DNA of 64,000 bases from Spirochaetota bacterium. GTDB taxonomy: Bacteria > Spirochaetota > UBA4802 > UBA5550. The DNA lies in NCBI GenBank assembly GCA_963664815.2, contig CAXXHB010000003.1, forward strand, positions 2,112,001-2,176,000, read 5' to 3'. The position numbers and the translations under genes are program-made. Under the pieces are notes generated by a model. It was not told where the DNA came from and did no database searches. It saw nothing but the letters and a program-made list of their open reading frames with translations. Positions 1-22,635 of the stretch are shown here, one piece after another (within the stretch, counting starts at the first letter, position 1; every line of letters starts with the position of its first letter).

Positions 1-1092
1 TGGGCGTCATACGATATCGAAACTTAATTCCAGTCAGTTAGATACGAGAGATGTAAGTAACGATATAAAATTCATAAGGGATACAGATTGGACCTGTGAA
101 GAACTTTTGAAGCTGAACAGGGATTATCTGAAAAATACAGCAAAAAAGAGTAAAGCAGGCTTTTTAATAATAGACGATACAGTTATAGAAAAACAGGGAA
201 AACCGAAGAAGATAGAGGGCCTTGGATGGCATTATTCCCATTCAAAAGGAAGAACTGTATATGGTCATTGCATGGTAAGCAGTCATTACAGAATTGGAGA
301 TATATCCTTTCCCGACGATTTCAGGTTTTATCTTAATGAAGACATAGCAGATAGATGCGGGAATGAATTTAAAAGCAAGCCCGATATAGCATGTGAATTA
401 ATTGAGAAGTTTGAATCTTTTACAGGAGAGAAGGTATACTGTTTAACAGATAGCTGGTACACATCTGAAAAGTTGTAAAAGCTGTACAAGCCAGAGAGTT
501 TGAACTTATAGGATCGCTCAAGAGTAATAGAGTATTCCAGTTCATGGAGCATGGTAAAAAACATAAGCTGTCAAGTTATGTTAAGAACTTAAGAAACTCA
601 TCCTTTGAAGAAATAATATTAAAGGGTGAAGCCTTCAAAGTCAGGCGGATAGAGGTCTGGCTGAAAGGTATCAGAGTTGTGATACTGATATCAAAAAGAG
701 TCAAGGACGGATCTAAGATGTTCATTCTTAGTACAGATATGAACTTGAGCAATGAAGAGATACTGAAATATTACAGCTACCGCTGGGATATTGAAGTTGG
801 ATATCTTTATTGTAAAGATCGTCTTGGAATGGGTCAATACCAGATGAGAAAACTGAAGGCAATAGGAAAATACTGTGCTCTTGTATTTGCTGCGTATGCT
901 TTACTTGAATCATTGAGAGTTTCTAATAATGAACAAAGTCTTGGTAAATCAAGGCAGTACTTCAAGATTATGAAGAAAAGGGAATATGTTGATCAGGTGA
1001 TCATATTACATAAAAAGGGTGTTTCAAAAAGAGACATCTATAAAAAATTAAAACTCGTGGCGTAGATATGTCTAAAAAACGCCTAACTCGAG
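1..1092 (+). mobile_element. IS701-family insertion sequence; left part lies outside the window
   Basis: DDE transposase fragments (IIDDTVIEK...GWHYSH...YGHC; DSWY; Y..RWDIE...KDRLG). The right end ...CCTAACTCGAG at 1092 abuts a sequence (1093 onward) that recurs uninterrupted at 6840. Confidence 0.75.
2..1065 (+). pseudogene. IS701-family DDE transposase, frameshifted at ~470
   Basis: The frame is open from base 2 to the TAA at 478. The neighbouring frame continues KVVKAVQAREFELIGSLKSNR into ORF 544-1065, consistent with one A lost in GAAAAG at ~467-472. Confidence 0.75.
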
Positions 1093-1255
1093 TAATTAAC
1101 TGATTCAGAATTATAGAACAGATCAATAAAATGTCAATATGTCCACTCAGCATAATTATTGCCAGATGTTCACTACGCACATCGCCGGACTTATTGAACC
1201 AGAAACTTTATACAGTCACCGGCGACGTCGTCAAGCTACTCAATTATACGATATG
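1093..1255. repeat. Palindromic cassette-boundary element, copy A (attC-like), with promoter-bearing left flank
   Basis: Closely similar to 6840-7000. Outer arms GCATAATT/AATTATAC, inner stem ACATCGCCGG/CCGGCGACGT. The core is also shared with 4727-4837. Confidence 0.85.
1110..1137 (-). promoter_or_regulatory. Consensus sigma70 promoter inside the copy A flank
   Basis: Minus strand reads TTGACA-N16-TATAAT. Confidence 0.6.
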
Positions 1256-1303
1256 AGAAACTTGTTGTTTTAGTACACTGAATTTGCATACGGGAATTAT
1301 TTG

Positions 1304-1834
1304 TTATGTATCAAACTCTATATTAACTTTTGGGGCATTTTTCATAACAAATTTTTTTTCTTTATATAATTTATAAGCTTCATCACCAATATAAAAATAA
1401 AAGCTGCTATTTTTACTTTGCTTTAAATTTTTTTTAATCCATTTCTGATATTCATTATATTGCTTATTAAGCCATTCAGGTTTTTTTATTAACTCTCCTT
1501 TTTCATCATAATATTTTGTTTGAAACCAAATTCGACCATTCCATAATTCGTTATCATTAACTATCTCACATCGTGAAAACTCGATAACCTCTGACAATGT
1601 ATCATCCACAAAACCGTTTTTCTTTATAAATATTTTCGAATCAGTTTTCATGATAAAAATTTTTCCGATTGTTGTTGAATCTAGTCTTTTACCTGAAATA
1701 TAACTTACTAGTTCCCCTATTTCATTTACTTTATTTCCACTTTTATCTACTATCACATCATTGTTCTTCTTAATAAATTCAATAAAAGATAGTTCATCAT
1801 TGGCTGTCATAAAAAAACTAATTTGCTTTCCCAT
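1304..1834 (-). CDS. Putative immunity protein for the orphan nuclease-like toxin
   Basis: 176 aa, very AT-rich, starts 11 bp after the toxin stop. Position is typical of CdiI. Confidence 0.7.
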   Translation of the reverse strand: MGKQISFFMTANDELSFIEFIKKNNDVIVDKSGNKVNEIGELVSYISGKRLDSTTIGKIFIMKTDSKIFIKKNGFVDDTLSEVIEFSRCEIVNDNELWNGRIWFQTKYYDEKGELIKKPEWLNKQYNEYQKWIKKNLKQSKNSSFYFYIGDEAYKLYKEKKFVMKNAPKVNIEFDT

Positions 1835-1845
1835 ATTCAGTATCC

Positions 1846-4728
1846 TTATTTATTATATGGATAGAATTTAACTCCATATCCAGCATTTTCAAAATCCTGA
1901 ATAGCTTTTGCTTCTCTTGAAACGGGAAGTCCACCTTTTGTTTCTTTCCCCACTTGAATGATAAATTTTTCCCCTGTTTCCTCATTTTTTACTAAAGCAT
2001 CCCCCCATCTTGATTCTTTAAACCCACCGGGTGTTTCTACTTTATATTCTGTTTTAACAGTATATCCATTCTTTTCAAAATCTGTTACAACTTCAGAAAT
2101 TTTCTCTTGATGAAGTGGACCACCTGCTTTTCCATATGGATTAGGAACTGCTTTAGCTACATCATCCGCTTTCCCTGTTACACCCAAAACATTCTCAGCA
2201 CTTGTAATACCGGAAACTGATAATCCTTTATTTATTAAAGCATTCTCAATCAATTCACCTGCAATGAAACCAGCCACTTCAGCAGGGTGTTCGGTTACCT
2301 TCTCTTTTACATTTTCTGCTACATTGCCTAAATAGTTTCCTGCACCCTGTTCACTTATATTATCTGCTAAACCTGTTACAGTCTCAACTCTTTTATTAAA
2401 TTCATAAGCACTTCCCAGTGCAGGATTTATCAGGTATAATCCACCTGTTGTTAATGATTCTTTTATTTCATCCTTAGTCGGTAATGAAGATAAAAGTCCT
2501 TCACCAAATTCACCTGCGTAATACGATAAATCCTTACCTTTTTGTCCTTCTAAATATTCATTAGTCTTCGATCTGTCCAGTTCTTTAAAGTCGGCAAGAT
2601 ACTTAGCCTCTTTTGTTTTCTCATTCGCCGCCCTTTCCTTCGCGAACTTAACCTCAATTGCATGTGCCGCATCAGGGTCAATCTCTTTAAGCAGCGCTAT
2701 CTTGGCATTTATTACAACCGCAGTATCTTTCGTATATGTATCAAGAATATCCTTTGACAGACTATTTGATAGCTCCTGCTTTACAGTTTTGTAAGCATTC
2801 AGCATATCCATCTGCTCATCGGGGCTCAGTGCTTCTCCGACAAGGTTTTTTGATCCGTAATATGCAAGTGTCTCTGATGCACTTACAGGTTTCCCGTTTT
2901 CAACCTTCTTCTCGTATTCATCCATTGTCTGGAATGATGATACATTTTTATCTTCTGTATAGTGGTCAAATTTTAACAGGTTCTCAGTCTTCTCAATTGT
3001 TGTTTCAATTTCCTGATCTACCTTCTTCGCTGTTTTCTCTGCTTCAGTTAATCCACTTTCCAATGCACCCACTGTATCATATAAAGTCTTTTCCCTGTCT
3101 TTTATCAGTTCTACTGTTGCGGTATCTACCGTAACTCCGCCTTTAAGTCCTCCGCTGTATGTATTGTATTGTGATATTGTTACATCTCTGTTAAGTCCCT
3201 CTGCCGATGTTTCCGGTTTGGTTATTGTTATTGTTCCTGCTCCTATTGTGGCCAGGTTTGTCTGTCTGTTGTCTGTGTAGCCGTAGTTTAAGCTTGAACT
3301 GTACGTATTTTCTGTTGGTTTGAAGCTGCCGCTTGCGCTTCCACCTGCATTGAAAGATACGTCCTTGTCCTTTATGTTGCTGAACTCAAGGCTTCCGGTT
3401 GTAAGTGTCAGGTTATCTGTTGTTGATGCTATTACTGCCCCTCTTAGGGTTGTCTTGTCTTCAACGTCTACGTTTACTGTCCCGCCGGTTAGGGATGTCT
3501 GTTCTGTTACCCAGCTTTTCTTCCCCGTGGAGAAGTTTGCGTTTACTCCGGCATTTCCCGATACGTTTTCGCCTGTTACACTTACTCCCCCGCTTGCGCC
3601 TATGGTCTGCGAGCTGTTTTTACTTTTATCCTGCAGTGATTGTACCACAAGGGAACCATTTACATCAAGGTCAAGCTCGTTTTTCGCCTTTACCACTCCG
3701 CCGATTACTGTTGTGTCTTCGCTGCTCTTTATTTTTATGTTGTTTCCGCTTAAATGTGCGTTGGTATATGTTTTGCTTTCGCTATCTGTCTCCGTGCTGT
3801 CTGCTGATGCATTAACTCCAATTGCTCCCGATGTTCCGAAACTTACCTTCATGTTGGCATGTTTCTTATCTTCGCTGCTGCTCTCTCTGTTCTCCGCCGC
3901 GCTTATCTCCACATTCTCTGCGTCAAGGGTTATATCCTCACCGGCTGCCACGCTGCTCCCCTTTACCTCCGCTTTGCTCCCCGCTGTTACAGTAAAGCTC
4001 CCTCCGGTTTTTATTGTCGATGCCTTTGCAGTTGTGCTTTCCGATGTCGATTTTGTTTTTGTGGCGTCTATTTCAAACTGGGCATCTCCGCTGAAGCCGA
4101 ATGCCTCTGCAGATCCCGCCGCCCCCGCTGCGCTTTGCAGCAGCGCCGCTGTCTTTGCTACCACGTTCTCCCCGCAGAGCGCTATATTCGCAATGTAAAA
4201 GGCCTCCTGCTCTCTTATTGAATCCAGATCATCCTGGTCTATAAGGTTGTTTTTATGGTCATCTTCTGCTTTCTTCAGGCTCTCCCTGTATTTCTCATAA
4301 TCATTCTTTGCCTTTACAACTGCTTCCTTTGCCTCTACCAGAGCCTTTGTTGCGTATGCTACATCCGTTGCGGCATTCTTGCCCCCAAACGAAAATTCCA
4401 CGCTTCCGTGAGTCTCTTCTGCTGTATGGCTTGTCTTCTCTTCTGTTGTCTTTATGCTTACGTTTTCTGCCGCCGTAAGGGTTACATCTCCACCGGTATT
4501 TATCTCAGATCCCGCTACTGTTATATTCTTTCCGCTGTTTACCGTAAGATCTTCCGATACATTAAGTTTTGATGAGCTCTGTGTCTCCCTGTCTGTCCTC
4601 TCCTTTACGCTGTCGTAGCTCCCCCCTGCAAGCGTTACTGACGCTCTCCCCTGGTCATAGTCAAAGGCGTTTTTGGGGTTGGTAAACAGGTCCATGTTTA
4701 TCCCCATTGTGGTCTTTTCAATATTCAT
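1846..4728 (-). CDS. Orphan CdiA C-terminal module with putative PD-(D/E)xK nuclease tip
   Basis: The first ~700 aa duplicate CdiA (8023-10115). The unique tip NPYGKAGGPLHQ...E..V.TPGG...R.GD...IIQVGK...PVSRE resembles REase-fold toxins. No signal peptide or TPS domain. Confidence 0.75.
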   Translation of the reverse strand: MNIEKTTMGINMDLFTNPKNAFDYDQGRASVTLAGGSYDSVKERTDRETQSSSKLNVSEDLTVNSGKNITVAGSEINTGGDVTLTAAENVSIKTTEEKTSHTAEETHGSVEFSFGGKNAATDVAYATKALVEAKEAVVKAKNDYEKYRESLKKAEDDHKNNLIDQDDLDSIREQEAFYIANIALCGENVVAKTAALLQSAAGAAGSAEAFGFSGDAQFEIDATKTKSTSESTTAKASTIKTGGSFTVTAGSKAEVKGSSVAAGEDITLDAENVEISAAENRESSSEDKKHANMKVSFGTSGAIGVNASADSTETDSESKTYTNAHLSGNNIKIKSSEDTTVIGGVVKAKNELDLDVNGSLVVQSLQDKSKNSSQTIGASGGVSVTGENVSGNAGVNANFSTGKKSWVTEQTSLTGGTVNVDVEDKTTLRGAVIASTTDNLTLTTGSLEFSNIKDKDVSFNAGGSASGSFKPTENTYSSSLNYGYTDNRQTNLATIGAGTITITKPETSAEGLNRDVTISQYNTYSGGLKGGVTVDTATVELIKDREKTLYDTVGALESGLTEAEKTAKKVDQEIETTIEKTENLLKFDHYTEDKNVSSFQTMDEYEKKVENGKPVSASETLAYYGSKNLVGEALSPDEQMDMLNAYKTVKQELSNSLSKDILDTYTKDTAVVINAKIALLKEIDPDAAHAIEVKFAKERAANEKTKEAKYLADFKELDRSKTNEYLEGQKGKDLSYYAGEFGEGLLSSLPTKDEIKESLTTGGLYLINPALGSAYEFNKRVETVTGLADNISEQGAGNYLGNVAENVKEKVTEHPAEVAGFIAGELIENALINKGLSVSGITSAENVLGVTGKADDVAKAVPNPYGKAGGPLHQEKISEVVTDFEKNGYTVKTEYKVETPGGFKESRWGDALVKNEETGEKFIIQVGKETKGGLPVSREAKAIQDFENAGYGVKFYPYNK
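2628..4720. repeat. ~2.1-kb direct repeat, copy 1 (orphan module; copy 2 lies inside cdiA)
   Basis: Aligns with 8023-10115 at offset 5395. Near-identical over ~2880-4720 with scattered SNPs, more diverged over 2628-2880. Confidence 0.95.
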
Positions 4729-4837
4729 ATCGCATAATTATTACTAATCATTCACTTTCTTACATCGCCGGACTCACAGTAACAGAAAATTTGTCCAATC
4801 CCCGGCGGTTTTGTTCAACTACTCAATTATGCGATAT
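4727..4837. repeat. Palindromic cassette-boundary element, copy B (attC-like)
   Basis: Perfect 13-bp terminal inverted repeat ATATCGCATAATT/AATTATGCGATAT. Inner ACATCGCCGGACT...CCCGGCG and CTACTCAATTAT are shared with copies A and C. Confidence 0.85.
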
Positions 4838-4951
4838 AGGGAATTTTTTGTGTCAGTGAACTGAACTTCTATACAAAACCTTTTTTTTTATTCATCAAAA
4901 CATTTTTTTTAGTAAACTTACAGCTTGAAAACTTTTGCAGTACAAATAAAT

Positions 4952-5266
4952 TTATTTAATAAGAATCATACTGATTAGTATTCTGAAATTAACAAAAACA
5001 AAACCCAATAAAAGTAAGATCTTCAATTCATCTTCATAATTCCAACCTATTTTATTTGTTATCCATATTACTATCAATATTGTGACTATAAAATATACCA
5101 CATAATTTGATGAATTATTAAAAACACTCTTAAGTTTATTAACTTTATCCCAATCATTGTTTTTTTGTGCATTATACCTTTTTATAAAAAACATTACTAT
5201 ATACATTACAGTTGTAGCAATTATTAATAAAAATTCCAAATTAATTATACTATGCGATCTAAGCAT
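4952..5266 (-). CDS. Putative membrane immunity protein
   Basis: 104 aa with about three hydrophobic segments, directly downstream of orphan toxin 5356-6597. Confidence 0.6.
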   Translation of the reverse strand: MLRSHSIINLEFLLIIATTVMYIVMFFIKRYNAQKNNDWDKVNKLKSVFNNSSNYVVYFIVTILIVIWITNKIGWNYEDELKILLLLGFVFVNFRILISMILIK

Positions 5267-5355
5267 AAATCTCCATTATTAAATATATTCTGTGCTGTTT
5301 AAAATAAATATCAGCTTTCTAAAAAAGGTTTTTTGAATTAAAATCTTTTAAAAAT

Positions 5356-6597
5356 TTAATCTTCGTTGACTCCGGATGTACCTTTTTTTAATCTATTTTT
5401 TACAATCGAATCAATAAATTGTTTTTGTTCAGATTTAATTAACTCCCCAGTACCATTTACACTTTTATCCACAACTTGTGTGCCTGTAGTGATTGTAGGT
5501 GTACCAGCAGTATATGTTAATGATGCTTCAGATGTCGTGATCCCTCCTCTAATTCCGATTTTCTGTGTTCCAAAATCTACTTCGACAATGACATTTTCTA
5601 AGCTTAAAGAAACGGTTCCGAAAGGATTTCCATCTCCATAACTTACGCCTGCTGTTATTGAACCTATTGTTTTTGGACCTATTCCAACTGTAGGATTAAG
5701 TTTACCTGAAATAGTTGCATCTTTATTAACAGTAAATTCGCCCGTACCACTTAAAGTGAGACCACCTCCTCGTCCATATACGTCTTCTTCTGCAAGAACT
5801 GTAGTAGAAACAACAACGTCTCCCTTCGGTAAAAATTCAATTACTTTGCCTAAGGTAGTTTTTTCTATAGAAGTCTGTACATCGGTTATCAGCCTATCTC
5901 CTTCTTTTAATTTATATGGATATTCAAGCTGAGGATTGTTCTTTAAGAATTTTTCTTTTTCTGTATCAAAATCGGTATTTATACCGAGTGCAACTTTCCT
6001 TTTTACATCTGTTTCAATAAAATCATCAACCAATGTATCACCTTTATCTACACGTTCAGTTATAACATTAACGGTACCTTTTTTGTCATATTCTTCAAAG
6101 GTTTTAGTATAAAGTAATGGTTTAGAACGTGCTACTACTCCACCATCTTCACTTGTATCAAGTTCTTTCGCCTTTTCGCTACCCTTAACCAGTGTATCTG
6201 ATTCAGCATTCGCATTATTCCAGTTAATTACAGCATCATGATTTGTAGTTGTTGAAGCTGTTTCTGAAAACCTGTTCCATAAATTTCCCGCCTGTTCTCC
6301 ACGTGAAGATGCAAGTGTAAGCTGCTGTCCTGCATCAAGGTCCAGCCCATTAGTGGTGTTATCCTTCCTCTGGGCTTCCCAGAAGAGTGATGTAATAATA
6401 TCTCCACCCTTTGATATATCTGTTCCTTCGGTATTCAGATATGTTTCATTATTATTCTGGTCATATGCTGCTGCATATCCATTCATCGCGTTATCTGTTT
6501 TATCTCCCTGATACAGATTTACATGAGATATTTTATCATCCTTAACTCCATCGCTGCTCTGAACAGTTTCAGAAACCTTATTAACCGCTTCTTTCAA
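5356..6597 (-). CDS. 5'-truncated orphan toxin C-terminal module with a LysM-like segment
   Basis: The frame stays open upstream to ~6825 without a start codon (AEVEEATETTKAKEGLG...). LysM-like V.KGDTL...NPQL..P..LKEGDRL and a Gly-rich C-terminus. Sits between two boundary elements with a small partner gene. Confidence 0.6.
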   Translation of the reverse strand: MKEAVNKVSETVQSSDGVKDDKISHVNLYQGDKTDNAMNGYAAAYDQNNNETYLNTEGTDISKGGDIITSLFWEAQRKDNTTNGLDLDAGQQLTLASSRGEQAGNLWNRFSETASTTTNHDAVINWNNANAESDTLVKGSEKAKELDTSEDGGVVARSKPLLYTKTFEEYDKKGTVNVITERVDKGDTLVDDFIETDVKRKVALGINTDFDTEKEKFLKNNPQLEYPYKLKEGDRLITDVQTSIEKTTLGKVIEFLPKGDVVVSTTVLAEEDVYGRGGGLTLSGTGEFTVNKDATISGKLNPTVGIGPKTIGSITAGVSYGDGNPFGTVSLSLENVIVEVDFGTQKIGIRGGITTSEASLTYTAGTPTITTGTQVVDKSVNGTGELIKSEQKQFIDSIVKNRLKKGTSGVNED

Positions 6598-6839
6598 TGA
6601 TGCCGCATCTTTATCAAGTGCATTATCGAGTTTTTCAGCTAAAGCCTTGTTCTCTGCCAGGGCTGCTATTGTTAATACATCCTTACGGGCATTAATTACA
6701 GCCTCGAGTGTACCCGCGAATCCAAGACCTTCTTTAGCTTTGGTAGTTTCTGTTGCCTCTTCAACCTCTGCCCGTATACAATCCTGAGAAAACGGTTTTT
6801 CACTGTATATACTATAAAAAAATTACTTTCAAAGATCAA

Positions 6840-7000
6840 TAATTAACTGATTCAGAATTATAGAACAGATCAATAAAATATCAATATGTCAACTCAACAT
6901 AATTGTCGCTAGACGTTCACTACGCACATCGCCGGACTCAGTATCAGAAACTTTATACAGCCCCGGCGATGTCGTTCTAGCTACTCAATTATTCGATATG
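6840..7000. repeat. Palindromic cassette-boundary element, copy C (attC-like), with promoter-bearing left flank
   Basis: CATAATT-GTCG-CTAGACG...ACATCGCCGG...CCGGCGATGT-CGTTCTAG-CTACTC-AATTATT. Closely similar to 1093-1255. Confidence 0.85.
6857..6884 (-). promoter_or_regulatory. Near-consensus sigma70 promoter inside the copy C flank
   Basis: Minus strand reads TTGATA-N16-TATAAT, pointing into the orphan module 6597-4952. Confidence 0.55.
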
Positions 7001-7044
7001 GAGGATCTTTACTTATTAAAATTACTTATTTTTACCAATGTGAA

Positions 7045-7332
7045 TTAAAAAAGCTTAAGAATTTTTCCCGTGGCGATCTCTTTCCCTTCCCAAAGTGTTA
7101 TAAGCTTTCCTCGTTTTAATTTTGGTAATACTAAATCTGGATTCATGAATTTTACAGGAATCTCATATATTCCACCCAATTGAAGCTCTCGACCTTCAAG
7201 TATCAAACGACAATCGAATCCGCTCCCGTCAACGAATAGAGGACACCCATAGACTTGACCTACTACAGAAGTTTTTCGTCCTCCTTCAGCAGTTGTTTTA
7301 AAACGAACCTCAATAATAACATCTGGCTTCAT
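7045..7332 (-). CDS. Putative CdiI immunity protein resembling EF-Tu domain III
   Basis: 95 aa, 7 bp after the cdiA stop. EV.....EGGR.T...Y and G..I.LWEG.EIATGKILK parallel EF-Tu EVYILSKDEGGRHT...[20 protein letters not shown]. Confidence 0.7.
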   Translation of the reverse strand: MKPDVIIEVRFKTTAEGGRKTSVVGQVYGCPLFVDGSGFDCRLILEGRELQLGGIYEIPVKFMNPDLVLPKLKRGKLITLWEGKEIATGKILKLF

Positions 7333-7339
7333 TTAAATT

Positions 7340-20486: not shown

Positions 20487-22192
20487 AGCATGTTGAATAA
20501 TAAAAATTCAAAACAGGAAATATGAATTTTCTATAAATTTTTATTATACTTTCTAATTATTCAAATATTTTACTTCGACTTCATATACATCGCATAAACC
20601 ATCCACGACATCTTCTCACACTACTGCAGATTGAATTCCATCCCATCCTATATCCGCTACTGCCTTCTGAAGTTTTTTCAGGTTATATGTAATGCCGGCC
20701 AGAATCGATATAGTATTACATTTCTTTCGTCCCCGCCAATTCAAACGGCTCAGACCATTGTTGAATTTCAAGTCAAAGAAATTGTGTTCTTTTCCAATAC
20801 GCCTGTTATATTTATACTTCCATTCTTCGCTTTGCATTCGATCTCTATATTTGAACCAGAGTTCTTTATTATCAACATAGGTTTTTGATACCGTAAAGAC
20901 TCTGATCTTATTTCTATCCTTATCTTTCCAGCATGATGAATAATGCTCACATCCTACACAAAAATTACGGCTCAATGTGAATTTGTACTTATTGTCAGAT
21001 TTTTCTAATCTCCCCTTTTTCTTACGTTTACCTTTGCAGAAAAAATATACTCCATCTTCTTCTTGTTGTACATGATGTTCTCCCTTTATAAACCAGCTCT
21101 CTGTAAAATGTAATGGGGGTGCTATATATAAATCTTTACCTTCCTGAATTAATTCACTCATCTGTGTAATGTTGAAATAACCTTTGTCTAATAAATACTC
21201 ACTTTCACATTTAACTGCATTGCTTTCTTTAGCAACTTCTACTTTTTCTACCATATCTGAAAGCAGGCTTATATCGCTTTCTTTAGATGTGGCCTCTATT
21301 GAAAGAAGTATGTCGTTGCTGCAAAATGCCGCCTGCACGTTATATCCCTGAATATAGCTTTCATCCTTTTTAAGAAGCTTACTCTCACTATCGGTTAAGT
21401 TCACTTTTGTTTCAGGTGTGATTCTTTCCTCTTTGACCTCATCCTCATATGACTTTATTTTCATCATGATCTGGTCATATTTATTTTTCTGCTTTTCTAT
21501 CAGATCTTTCTCTTTATTTAATTCTTCTTCGCTTATTTCGTCATTATCTTTTAACTCTGATATGTATTTTGCTCTCGCTAAAAGTTTCGCGGATAGGTTC
21601 TCATAATGTTTTAGCTTCTTATCGAAACCTTCCTTGTCTCGTGTAAATTCTTTACTGGCATTACTGCTTATCTTTGTACCGTCTATCATTATTCTGCGCC
21701 AGTCTATCAGATTTAATTCTTCAAGTATATATAATAAACGGGCAAAGATAACTGGAATCTGATCTGGAAAATCGTTAAGAAAACGGCAAAGTGTCGAATA
21801 ATCTATTGATCTGCCGCCGCTTAAAAATAAAAATCCGGGATGATTGCGATTAAGCATTCTCTCGATCTTTCTCATCGACTCTATCCCCTGGCTTAATCCA
21901 TATAAAATTACTTTCAATTTTGCCGAGGGCTCTATCGCCTTTTGCCCTACCGTATCATTCTTATATTTTTTATCAAATGGTTTTGTATCAACATATTCAT
22001 CTATGAATCTATCAATTACCTTCTCTATTGAATTATCATCAAATATTTCTTCCGGATATATTGTTAAAAAATATCCTTGCCCCCTCTCTATAGGTTTATA
22101 CTTTGCCATGTATAATCTCCATACCTTTGATATTTTCATCATGGTTTATAATTTCCTGCCTGTCAATTAATACTTTGATTAATCAACAGGCA
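20487..22192 (-). mobile_element. IS1182-family insertion sequence with imperfect terminal IRs and 6-bp TSD
   Basis: Ends GCATGTTGAATAA (20488-20500) and TTAATCAACAGGC (22179-22191) are inverted repeats (11/13). AGGGGT is duplicated at 20481-20486 and 22193-22198. Confidence 0.85.
20616..22109 (-). CDS. IS1182-family transposase
   Basis: P...LKVILYG...GI.SMRKIE; IDGTKI.SNAS; TD.ES...IQGYNVQ; DKGY; C..C...C; G..R...RG. Alternative start at 22142. Confidence 0.9.
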   Translation of the reverse strand: MAKYKPIERGQGYFLTIYPEEIFDDNSIEKVIDRFIDEYVDTKPFDKKYKNDTVGQKAIEPSAKLKVILYGLSQGIESMRKIERMLNRNHPGFLFLSGGRSIDYSTLCRFLNDFPDQIPVIFARLLYILEELNLIDWRRIMIDGTKISSNASKEFTRDKEGFDKKLKHYENLSAKLLARAKYISELKDNDEISEEELNKEKDLIEKQKNKYDQIMMKIKSYEDEVKEERITPETKVNLTDSESKLLKKDESYIQGYNVQAAFCSNDILLSIEATSKESDISLLSDMVEKVEVAKESNAVKCESEYLLDKGYFNITQMSELIQEGKDLYIAPPLHFTESWFIKGEHHVQQEEDGVYFFCKGKRKKKGRLEKSDNKYKFTLSRNFCVGCEHYSSCWKDKDRNKIRVFTVSKTYVDNKELWFKYRDRMQSEEWKYKYNRRIGKEHNFFDLKFNNGLSRLNWRGRKKCNTISILAGITYNLKKLQKAVADIGWDGIQSAVV

Positions 22193-22470
22193 AGGGGTGC
22201 GGGGTCTTAAGAGTCAAGGTTGCTGAAGGTATACTTCACAGACAGTTCAGCTTTGCCCCTTTCAGGGGTGCGGGGTCTTAAGAGTCAAGGTTGCTGAAGG
22301 TATACTTCACAGACAGTTCAGCTTTGCCCCTTCTGGGCGCCCGAGCGTAGCGACAAAGTACCCCCGGGGTAGGTGCGGGGTCTGAGAGTTACAGGTTGCT
22401 GAAGATATATTTGCCCCTTCCAATACGCTGCACTGAGCTGCGCCGAGGTGTGCGGGTGCTGATGAGTACC
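22193..22470. repeat. REP-like tandem repeat array: 71-bp unit twice plus degenerate copies
   Basis: 22193-22261 equals 22264-22332. Degenerate copies at ~22371-22420 and ~22447-22470. A left remnant GCTTTGCCCCTTTCAGGGGT lies at 20467-20486. Confidence 0.85.
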
Positions 22471-22635
22471 AGTTCCTTAAAATTTAATATTGACATAATC
22501 ATATCTTATGTTTTGATTTAAATTCAGTGTTGTAACGTTGAAATAAAGCTTATGAGAGATCTTTCCCCTTAATTCAGAAGTGTACTTCTCTCATGTTTTT
22601 TTATATATAATTAATATATGCTTTCTGGAAAATCT

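Follow-up and report, generated by a model that had tools for sequence, protein, structure and literature searches.

A structured, strand-specific hairpin element at the ends of toxin-immunity modules in one family of Spirochaetota

The window analysed here is the whole 64,000-nucleotide (nt) stretch C3:2112001-2176000 (contig CAXXHB010000003.1) of a 5.2-Mb Spirochaetota genome (3 contigs, 96% complete), and it carries a contact-dependent growth inhibition (CDI) locus in which each toxin-immunity module is followed by a hairpin element. This element is a conserved end-piece of toxin-immunity modules in one Spirochaetota family: a discrete unit of ~115 nt located 5-120 nt past the last gene of a module and on the same strand. 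The modules carrying it are pairs of a CdiA C-terminal region (CdiA-CT) and an immunity protein, other two-gene pairs and a few toxin-antitoxin pairs. As to what it does, we tentatively favour a hairpin at the module end that is transcribed and also provides the common homology through which modules are exchanged, a reading that ranks first at somewhat below an even chance; a recombination site acted on in trans ranks second, followed by a repeat resembling a MITE (miniature inverted-repeat transposable element) and then by a relic.

The three palindromes that an initial annotation of the window had placed at 1145-1254, 4727-4837 and 6892-6999 are real, and a 115-position profile delimits them at 1144-1258 (copy A, or P3), 4726-4842 (copy B, or P2) and 6891-7003 (copy C, or P1). 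They do lie shortly past the presumed immunity stops, at measured distances of 40-109 nt after the open reading frames (ORFs) 1304-1834, 4952-5266 and 7045-7332 rather than 45-115 bp. Copy C folds as proposed, with the ATAATTG/CAATTAT base, the CTAGA stem and the inner stem ACATCGCCGG/CCGGCGATGT. Only copy C clearly out-folds shuffled sequence (z-scores of -3.9 and -4.5 as DNA and -3.7 as RNA); copies A (z -1.0/-1.25) and B (z -2.4/-1.9) fold weakly as DNA because their middle stems have decayed. The repeat exceeds the palindrome, since copies A and C extend ~50 nt into a promoter-like spacer and copy C further, ~1 kb into orphan coding sequence, copy A being cut off from its own orphan by the insertion of an insertion sequence (IS). 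Scanning the genome with the profile yielded 10 copies (E <= 9e-16, with the next match at E = 0.1), and a covariance model recovered the identical 10. All 10 are in three cdiBAI-orphan arrays (C3:2082230-2089580, the window and C2:472888-482614), each behind one of the genome's three TPS-bearing cdiA genes, so that a generic scattered repeat, whether of the repetitive extragenic palindromic (REP) kind or another genome-wide type, is not what is seen. The original observation is confirmed and is broader than was first seen.

Beyond this genome, BLAST found the palindrome in 7 of 60 other genomes, and the covariance model detected the element in 12 of the 63 other family genomes (1-7 copies per genome), its occurrences spanning 5 of 25 genera. 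As in the window, it stands in these relatives and in metagenome contigs behind toxin-immunity-like or toxin-antitoxin pairs and on their strand, a result of the scan that the initial annotation had suggested. A pattern scan of metagenomes gave 27 loci, 22 of them true by profile and 5 due to chance, and a scan across species genomes returned 36 matches, 9 of them true loci; the remaining 27 belong to high-G+C taxa and were discounted as chance matches without a profile check, the search pattern itself being G+C-rich. A lone match on a viral contig (67% G+C, no profile match) was likewise attributed to chance. An ORF on the same strand ends no more than 120 nt ahead of the element in 40 of the 50 non-redundant copies with at least 400 nt of upstream sequence, and no more than 350 nt ahead in 7 others. 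Most of the upstream genes come in pairs, in which a protein of ~250-600 amino acids (aa) without an assigned family is followed by one of ~140-260 aa that has LRR, ankyrin, HEAT or DUF3467 domains or no assigned family. The first protein matches CdiA C-terminal regions or orphans of this genome in 7 distinct foreign loci (L021, L024, L063, L067, L069, L091 and L123) and through one intermediate in ~7 more. BrnT/BrnA, ParDE and HicAB cassettes lie between or beside copies, and arrays consist of same-direction copies ~0.6-2.7 kb apart, some of the cassettes having reversed toxin-antitoxin genes. The TPS domain was found in 4 of 64 genomes of the family, namely this one and three without the element, and a TPS-domain cdiA was not found in any of the 12 other element-bearing genomes, most of which are incomplete. 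No Rfam match was obtained for window positions 1-8000 or for five foreign loci, and no description of such an element was found in the literature searched (listings, abstracts and selected passages).

The substitution pattern indicates that the hairpin is under selection for its fold. In a structure-blind alignment of 17 copies, compensatory changes were observed in 8 of the 22 predicted pairs, and the middle stem exists in three fully complementary versions. When 40 copies were aligned to the model, 15 of the 22 pairs were compensated and none of 500 shuffles reached the observed values, with 90.3% of cells paired, compared to 78.3% after shuffling and 23-49% with partners slid; a lack of covariation, which the initial annotation had named as grounds for abandoning its proposal, did not appear. 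The gene-sense strand is the folding strand. G.T wobble cells outnumber A.C cells by 86 to 17 (22 pairs, 40 copies) and by 68 to 10 in the foreign copies alone, and in all four copies folded as RNA the sense transcript is steadier than the antisense one by 6.5-14 kcal/mol (sense/antisense: -48.3/-41.8, -41.8/-27.8, -41.4/-33.5 and -40.4/-32.0 kcal/mol). The element is 70-84% identical across genera. Sequence conservation begins ~15 nt ahead of the ATAAT box, and the base boxes ATAATKG/CAATTAT are near-invariant (52-53 of 53 non-redundant copies). Between them are asymmetric spacers of 3 versus 2 nt, a 7-nt one-sided bulge and a terminal part, variable from subfamily to subfamily and open to insertions of 20-45 nt. 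The loop AAGTTTCTGATAC and the 3'-arm bulge AGCGAAC are conserved within the main subfamily, and a second subfamily combines a different interior with the same base and GCGAAC.

Stems have decayed in copies A, B and P10, and some module joints are without the element, for example the one after the first immunity gene of the neighbouring array. The joint C3:2093583-2093700 is without the hairpin interior, which looks like the result of a deletion between a 9-nt direct repeat of both arms. Such decay and such joints are what a functionless relic would leave when hitch-hiking in a duplicated joint between orphan modules; the identity kept across genera, three or more fully compensated stem versions, the one-strand bias and the invariant boxes make this origin very improbable.

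Another possibility is a non-autonomous mobile repeat of the MITE type, or like REP doublets (REPINs) or enterobacterial repetitive intergenic consensus (ERIC) sequences, which a distant transposase would move with a preference for module 3' ends, the RNA hairpin being a by-product or a secondary benefit. The element does have discrete ends with ~18-nt imperfect terminal inverted repeats, a conserved 5' flank ART, mosaics with other short repeats, a second palindrome family alongside it with the same 3' tail, and a low, variable copy number across 5 of 25 genera, and REPINs are likewise known for compensatory stem changes. However, the copies inspected show neither direct repeats nor a target duplication on their flanks, their true ends being uncertain by a few bases, and only 10 copies exist here, none beyond the cdi arrays, with orientation tied to the upstream gene in 47 of the 50 copies counted above. 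Candidate partners also dropped out. Y1 transposases (RAYT/IS200, PF01797) had 0 matches in the genome in a search whose control was positive in 6 of 14 known genomes; an IS91-type transposase occurs in 6 of 13 genomes with the element and in 27 of 51 without it and does not track it; and the IS beside copy A has its own unrelated ends and a 7-bp duplication and merely interrupts the joint. We consider a mobile repeat improbable.

What follows the hairpin differs between relatives and this genome. Of the 48 copies whose 3' end is intact, 18 have a hairpin with a T-run no farther than 110 nt downstream, as counted by a crude home-made rule. Many of these terminators fall inside a conserved tail, so that hairpin, tail and terminator form one unit in relatives, and at one foreign locus this unit is just upstream of a phospholipase-like gene, rimP and nusA. 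The element itself is not an intrinsic terminator, as it has no abutting T-run and a terminator scan was empty at the three window copies. In two genomes, a second, unrelated palindrome family of ~150 nt lies directly upstream of the hairpin (L024:2985-3150; L025, minus strand) and closes with that same 3' tail, TCGAAGGAGAGAGTAT, a hint that the set of mosaic hairpin modules is wider.

Loci with unrelated upstream modules turn homologous at element position 1 (99.8% identity), 2 (99.6%), 8 (100%), 3 (89%) or 12 (89%), and the homology then persists for 300-1270 nt. Module break-points away from the element, a second outcome that would have spoken against the initial proposal, were not observed in relatives, where homology starts 1-12 nt from the 5' edge. 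Since homology runs from the element onward while the upstream modules differ, the element travels with downstream sequence. Judged from these alignments, the onset fits a fixed joining site; it is also compatible with the element being the first sequence that the modules have in common, because subsets of copies share a 10-60 nt leader. Where the element is broken internally, the positions vary (behind CAATT, GAGTCCGG or GATGTGC, or ahead of ATAATTG), yet the break follows one and the same base with two different toxin-antitoxin cassettes from two genomes.

In this genome, the repeat between modules sets in sharply ~40 nt past the immunity stop, in gene direction, and leads into the hairpin. 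A ~85-nt A+T-rich spacer with a promoter-like site lies 3' of the hairpin; ~50 nt of degenerate cdiA sequence, corresponding to the stretch immediately before the NTYSGGL motif, separate it from the orphan. The two best sigma-70 matches in window positions 900-7400 are those directly 3' of copies A and C; the site is exact behind 4 of the genome's 10 copies and occurs in a TATAAC version behind 2 more. Homologous blocks begin at the element and reach as far as 1148 nt downstream, with lengths of 0.75-1.15 kb and identities of 89-96%. An N-terminal block of ~224 aa is common to six orphans including orphan 1 and is encoded by none of the three resident cdiA genes, and it was found in a metagenomic CdiA-type protein right after the equivalent motif. 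Most orphans have no nucleotide homology to resident cdiA, so simple upstream-homology swapping with the main gene is unavailable to them. The junction of copy B with cdiA is a 6-bp microhomology join, its six bases being present in both partners, and copy P6, without its first 11 nt, is fused to a cdiA fragment whose end falls precisely on NTY. In three places long cdiA fragments start near one residue of CdiA (~1336-1380): window 1846-4728, C3:2095051-2097873 and L114:1964-2866, the last being on a metagenome contig where the fragment likewise follows a hairpin copy. Such recurrence may point to a site in cdiA that breaks preferentially or serves as an internal start.

In the favoured reading, the hairpin would be transcribed with the immunity gene as a stem-loop of the 3' untranslated region that protects or ends the transcript. 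In this genome, a predicted near-consensus sigma-70 promoter would have replaced the tail, with hairpin and promoter together making up a joint where one module is closed and the next orphan begins. Being the only sequence common to unrelated modules, the element would double as a downstream homology arm, and ordinary homologous recombination at it could swap modules and grow arrays, with occasional illegitimate joins such as that of copy B. The sense-strand bias, the covariation, the locked orientation, the terminators, the promoter, the shared blocks and the copy B join are counted in its favour. Several observations weigh against it. The element keeps a sharp 5' edge next to upstream sequences that fall into more than 25 unrelated contexts; 12 of the genomes that have it are without a detectable TPS-domain cdiA, and there the upstream homology arm is missing; and arrays include cassettes with oppositely directed genes. 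Near-invariant boxes next to covarying stems point to recognition of the sequence itself, for which an RNA of purely structural role has no need. The terminator count depends on a rough rule, and for both the covariation and the strand-bias counts the 40-copy alignment was fitted to the model and the copies are mutually related.

Those invariant boxes are central to the second-ranked explanation, which we regard as possible but unlikely: a folded recombination site, attC-like or Xer-phage-like in design, whose base boxes an unlinked tyrosine recombinase, for example one of the host Xer type, would cut on the sense-strand hairpin and thereby insert, excise or reshuffle modules beside the element. 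In integron attC sites, R'' is RYYYAAC and R' is GTTRRRY, the bottom strand (antisense to the cassette gene) is folded and active, and the site lies at the cassette 3' end with crossover at the 3' box. Like these sites, including the homogeneous ~120-bp repeats of chromosomal integrons, the element is an imperfect palindrome of similar length in which conserved inverted boxes form the base, the stem covaries, one arm has unpaired bases and the terminal structure varies, and its same-direction copies separate small cassettes that include toxin-antitoxin genes. Unlike them, it has the boxes ATAATKG/CAATTAT, it folds on the sense strand, its loop and bulge sequences are conserved within a subfamily, and it is linked to downstream sequence (99.6-100% identical together with the element while upstream modules differ) with a terminator or promoter attached. 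No IntI accompanies it. The best match to TIGR02249 in the genome scores 126 + 100 bits against a cut-off of 265, is missing the middle part of the model and belongs to a gene 140 kb from the arrays. Membership of attC thus fails on five tested defining features, and the initial designation as an attC-like site is not supported. The AAT/ATT core that it described in place of AAC/GTT holds as a comparison; it is no observed substitution, and nothing ties the element to attC by descent.

The broader idea of modules shuffled at folded border sites fared better. The tie to modules, the selection on the fold and the border edge all hold, and none of the three outcomes that the initial annotation had named as refuting it occurred; its attC and tyrosine-recombinase part is not supported. 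The window contains no Phage_integrase match, in keeping with the initial statement that it encodes no recombinase, and the 9 matches in the genome are all more than ~100 kb from an array. A search for IntI/Xer genes near copies found none linked in this genome, and recombinase homologues in just 2 of 47 element-bearing loci of other genomes, both belonging to one element with three tandem tyrosine recombinase genes. This trio (L067:15380-17927 and L068:183-1112, 3-5 kb from arrays) was rejected as a partner, being next to one foreign array in a single related genome.

For a site used in trans speak the inverted boxes with the covarying middle stem, the one-sided conserved bulge and the variable terminal part; the near-identical loci with different upstream modules, whose homology starts at position 1, 2 or 8 (99.6-100%); the same-direction copies bounding ~0.6-2.7-kb cassettes, some with reversed toxin-antitoxin genes; the identical break base in two toxin-antitoxin cassettes; and the modules in genomes without detectable cdiA. 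GC skew indicates that each of the three arrays points the same way as replication, which makes the foldable strand the lagging-strand template in 3 of 3, and four full-length Xer-like recombinase genes lie elsewhere in the genome, whose tyrosine recombinases are located at C3:1942723, 1972178, 2478025 and 3696635. The outer arm resembles a XerD-side arm as listed in Table 1 of PMC2731167, which we treat as a lead only. Besides the missing integrase and linked recombinase, the heterogeneous break-points within the element and the microhomology join of copy B count against such a site. The sharp homology edge is equally expected if the element is the first common sequence, and the conserved tail and terminator would have no role. 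In four public runs (Logan contigs), joints and loose ends were all explained by paralogous copies, although contigs cannot reveal rare circles. No host dif site was identified for comparison in two pattern searches, so the Xer idea stays a lead. Its most specific form, an integrase-less cassette system in which a host Xer-type recombinase recognises the invariant boxes on the folded sense strand of the hairpin, its attachment site, to insert or excise toxin-immunity and toxin-antitoxin cassettes, seems to us rather doubtful.

Among other known systems, classical cdiA-CT/cdiI orphan arrays occur in E. coli, Neisseria and Burkholderia. The present arrays share with them the order cdiB-cdiA-cdiI followed by start-less cdiA 3' fragments with immunity genes, and a conserved cdiA stretch before the variable part; they differ in the structured repeat and the dedicated (predicted) promoter at the joints and in that most orphans are without nucleotide homology to resident cdiA. 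REP/REPIN, ERIC and Correia-type repeats are hairpins of 100-150 nt in transcribed intergenic DNA and come in tens to hundreds of dispersed copies without fixed orientation. The element resembles them as a hairpin in presumably transcribed intergenic DNA with compensated stems and mosaics, and departs from them in having 1-10 copies per genome, only beside toxin modules and in locked orientation, and no RAYT gene. Phages of the CTX-phi type that use XerCD have folded single-strand attachment sites. By analogy, a one-strand hairpin could here build a recombinase site with a partly unpaired centre without a dedicated recombinase gene; unlike those sites, the arrays are not at the replication terminus and the second arm varies. 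Among spirochetes, the abstract of PMC3607928 names Treponema as the only clade known to have integrons in 2013, and passages of it describe R and L boxes and a protruding G in Treponema attC sites. The nearest described analogue is the rAID-1 arrays of Bacteroidales, which passages of 10.1101/471110 describe as orphan immunity gene arrays with some toxin fragments and integron-like intergenic repeats, their defining trait being a co-directional array with a gene for a XerD-like recombinase at its 5' end. On that description, both systems have arrays of orphan modules and modules in genomes without a detectable delivery system, and ours differs in the phylum, in involving CDI instead of a type VI secretion system, in its 115-nt hairpin repeat and in having no linked recombinase.

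The locus occupies window positions 1-16729 and reads on the minus strand as cdiB, cdiA, cdiI, copy C, orphan 1 with its ORF, copy B, orphan 2 with its ORF, copy A and the IS (Table 1). It has the features of a CDI locus with orphans: a cdiB of the ShlB type with POTRA domains, a cdiA with TPS domain and haemagglutinin repeats, a small immunity ORF, and truncated cdiA 3' fragments with small ORFs of their own, the immunity roles being deduced from position alone. Orphan 2 starts at CdiA residue ~1377-1380, and its match to the main CdiA covers residues 1380-2100.

Table 1. Features of the CDI locus in the window, from cdiB to the IS
Feature	Position	Strand	Basis
cdiB, ShlB/FhaC-type transporter with POTRA domains	14897-16729	-	domain matches
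cdiA, 2303 aa, TPS domain and Fil_haemagg_2 repeats	7340-14251	-	domain matches
Main-locus cdiI candidate, 95 aa, no family	7045-7332	-	position
Hairpin copy C, stems intact, 40 nt past cdiI stop	6891-7003	-	nhmmer; covariance model 129 bits; folds
Promoter-like TTGATA-16-TATAAT directly 3' of copy C, toward orphan 1	6857-6884	-	11/12, second best in 900-7400
Orphan 1, start-less CdiA C-terminal fragment, 480 aa, variable toxin tip	5356-6822	-	73% to CdiA-type protein P0001
Orphan 1 candidate immunity gene, 104 aa	4952-5266	-	only weak membrane-protein matches
Hairpin copy B, middle stem decayed, 3' end joined to cdiA fragment via 6 common bases	4726-4842	-	profile; loose end at 4720 in 4/4 runs
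Orphan 2, cdiA fragment, 960 aa, then divergent C-terminus	1846-4728	-	92% to main CdiA over 721 aa
Orphan 2 candidate immunity gene, 176 aa, no family	1304-1834	-	position
Hairpin copy A	1144-1258	-	profile; covariance model 135.6 bits
Promoter-like TTGACA-16-TATAAT directly 3' of copy A	1110-1137	-	12/12, best in 900-7400
IS of ~1.3 kb, 3' part (DDE_5/DDE_Tnp_1), transposase frame broken, 7-bp target duplication	1-1092	+	domain matches

The IS spans C3:2111784-2113092 and has at least 6 other copies at 83-85% identity; its transposase frame is split at ~478/544. It sits in the leader between the copy-A promoter and the orphan coding fragment and has probably silenced that orphan. Just left of the window, at C3:2098848-2111758, is a second full cdiA with an orphan array on the same strand, head-to-tail with the first, so that the two arrays form one toxin island of ~45 kb; the third cdi array is on the 842-kb contig C2. 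IS21-type, GGDEF, EAL and chemoreceptor genes flank the arrays. Upstream of each of the three cdiA genes lies an opposite-strand ORF of 127-161 aa without a family (window 14342-14827), which may be spurious or encode a small regulator. Farther along, at window 22193-22489, with an IS-type transposase gene (20616-22142) on one side and a ThiF-family gene on the other, are four tandem-like copies of a 41-69-nt unit that starts with GGGGTGCGGGG and ends in GCCCCTT, its start resembling one tail found 3' of the hairpin in relatives.

Gain, stacking and exchange of toxin-immunity modules in polymorphic-toxin loci are usually explained by homologous recombination within the toxin gene's conserved part. 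The element described here is structured, strand-specific and conserved across genera, and it lies at the opposite end of the modules, also in genomes that have orphans only. Acting as RNA, it would be a novel 3'-end motif that controls immunity expression and keeps stacked modules insulated from one another; as a DNA site, it would represent a second hairpin-based cassette system beside integrons. Should a host Xer-type recombinase drive it, spirochetes would trade immunity and toxin modules even into genomes without CDI and stack them behind cdiA. Either way, the hairpin offers a short, searchable marker for toxin-immunity modules in uncultured spirochetes.

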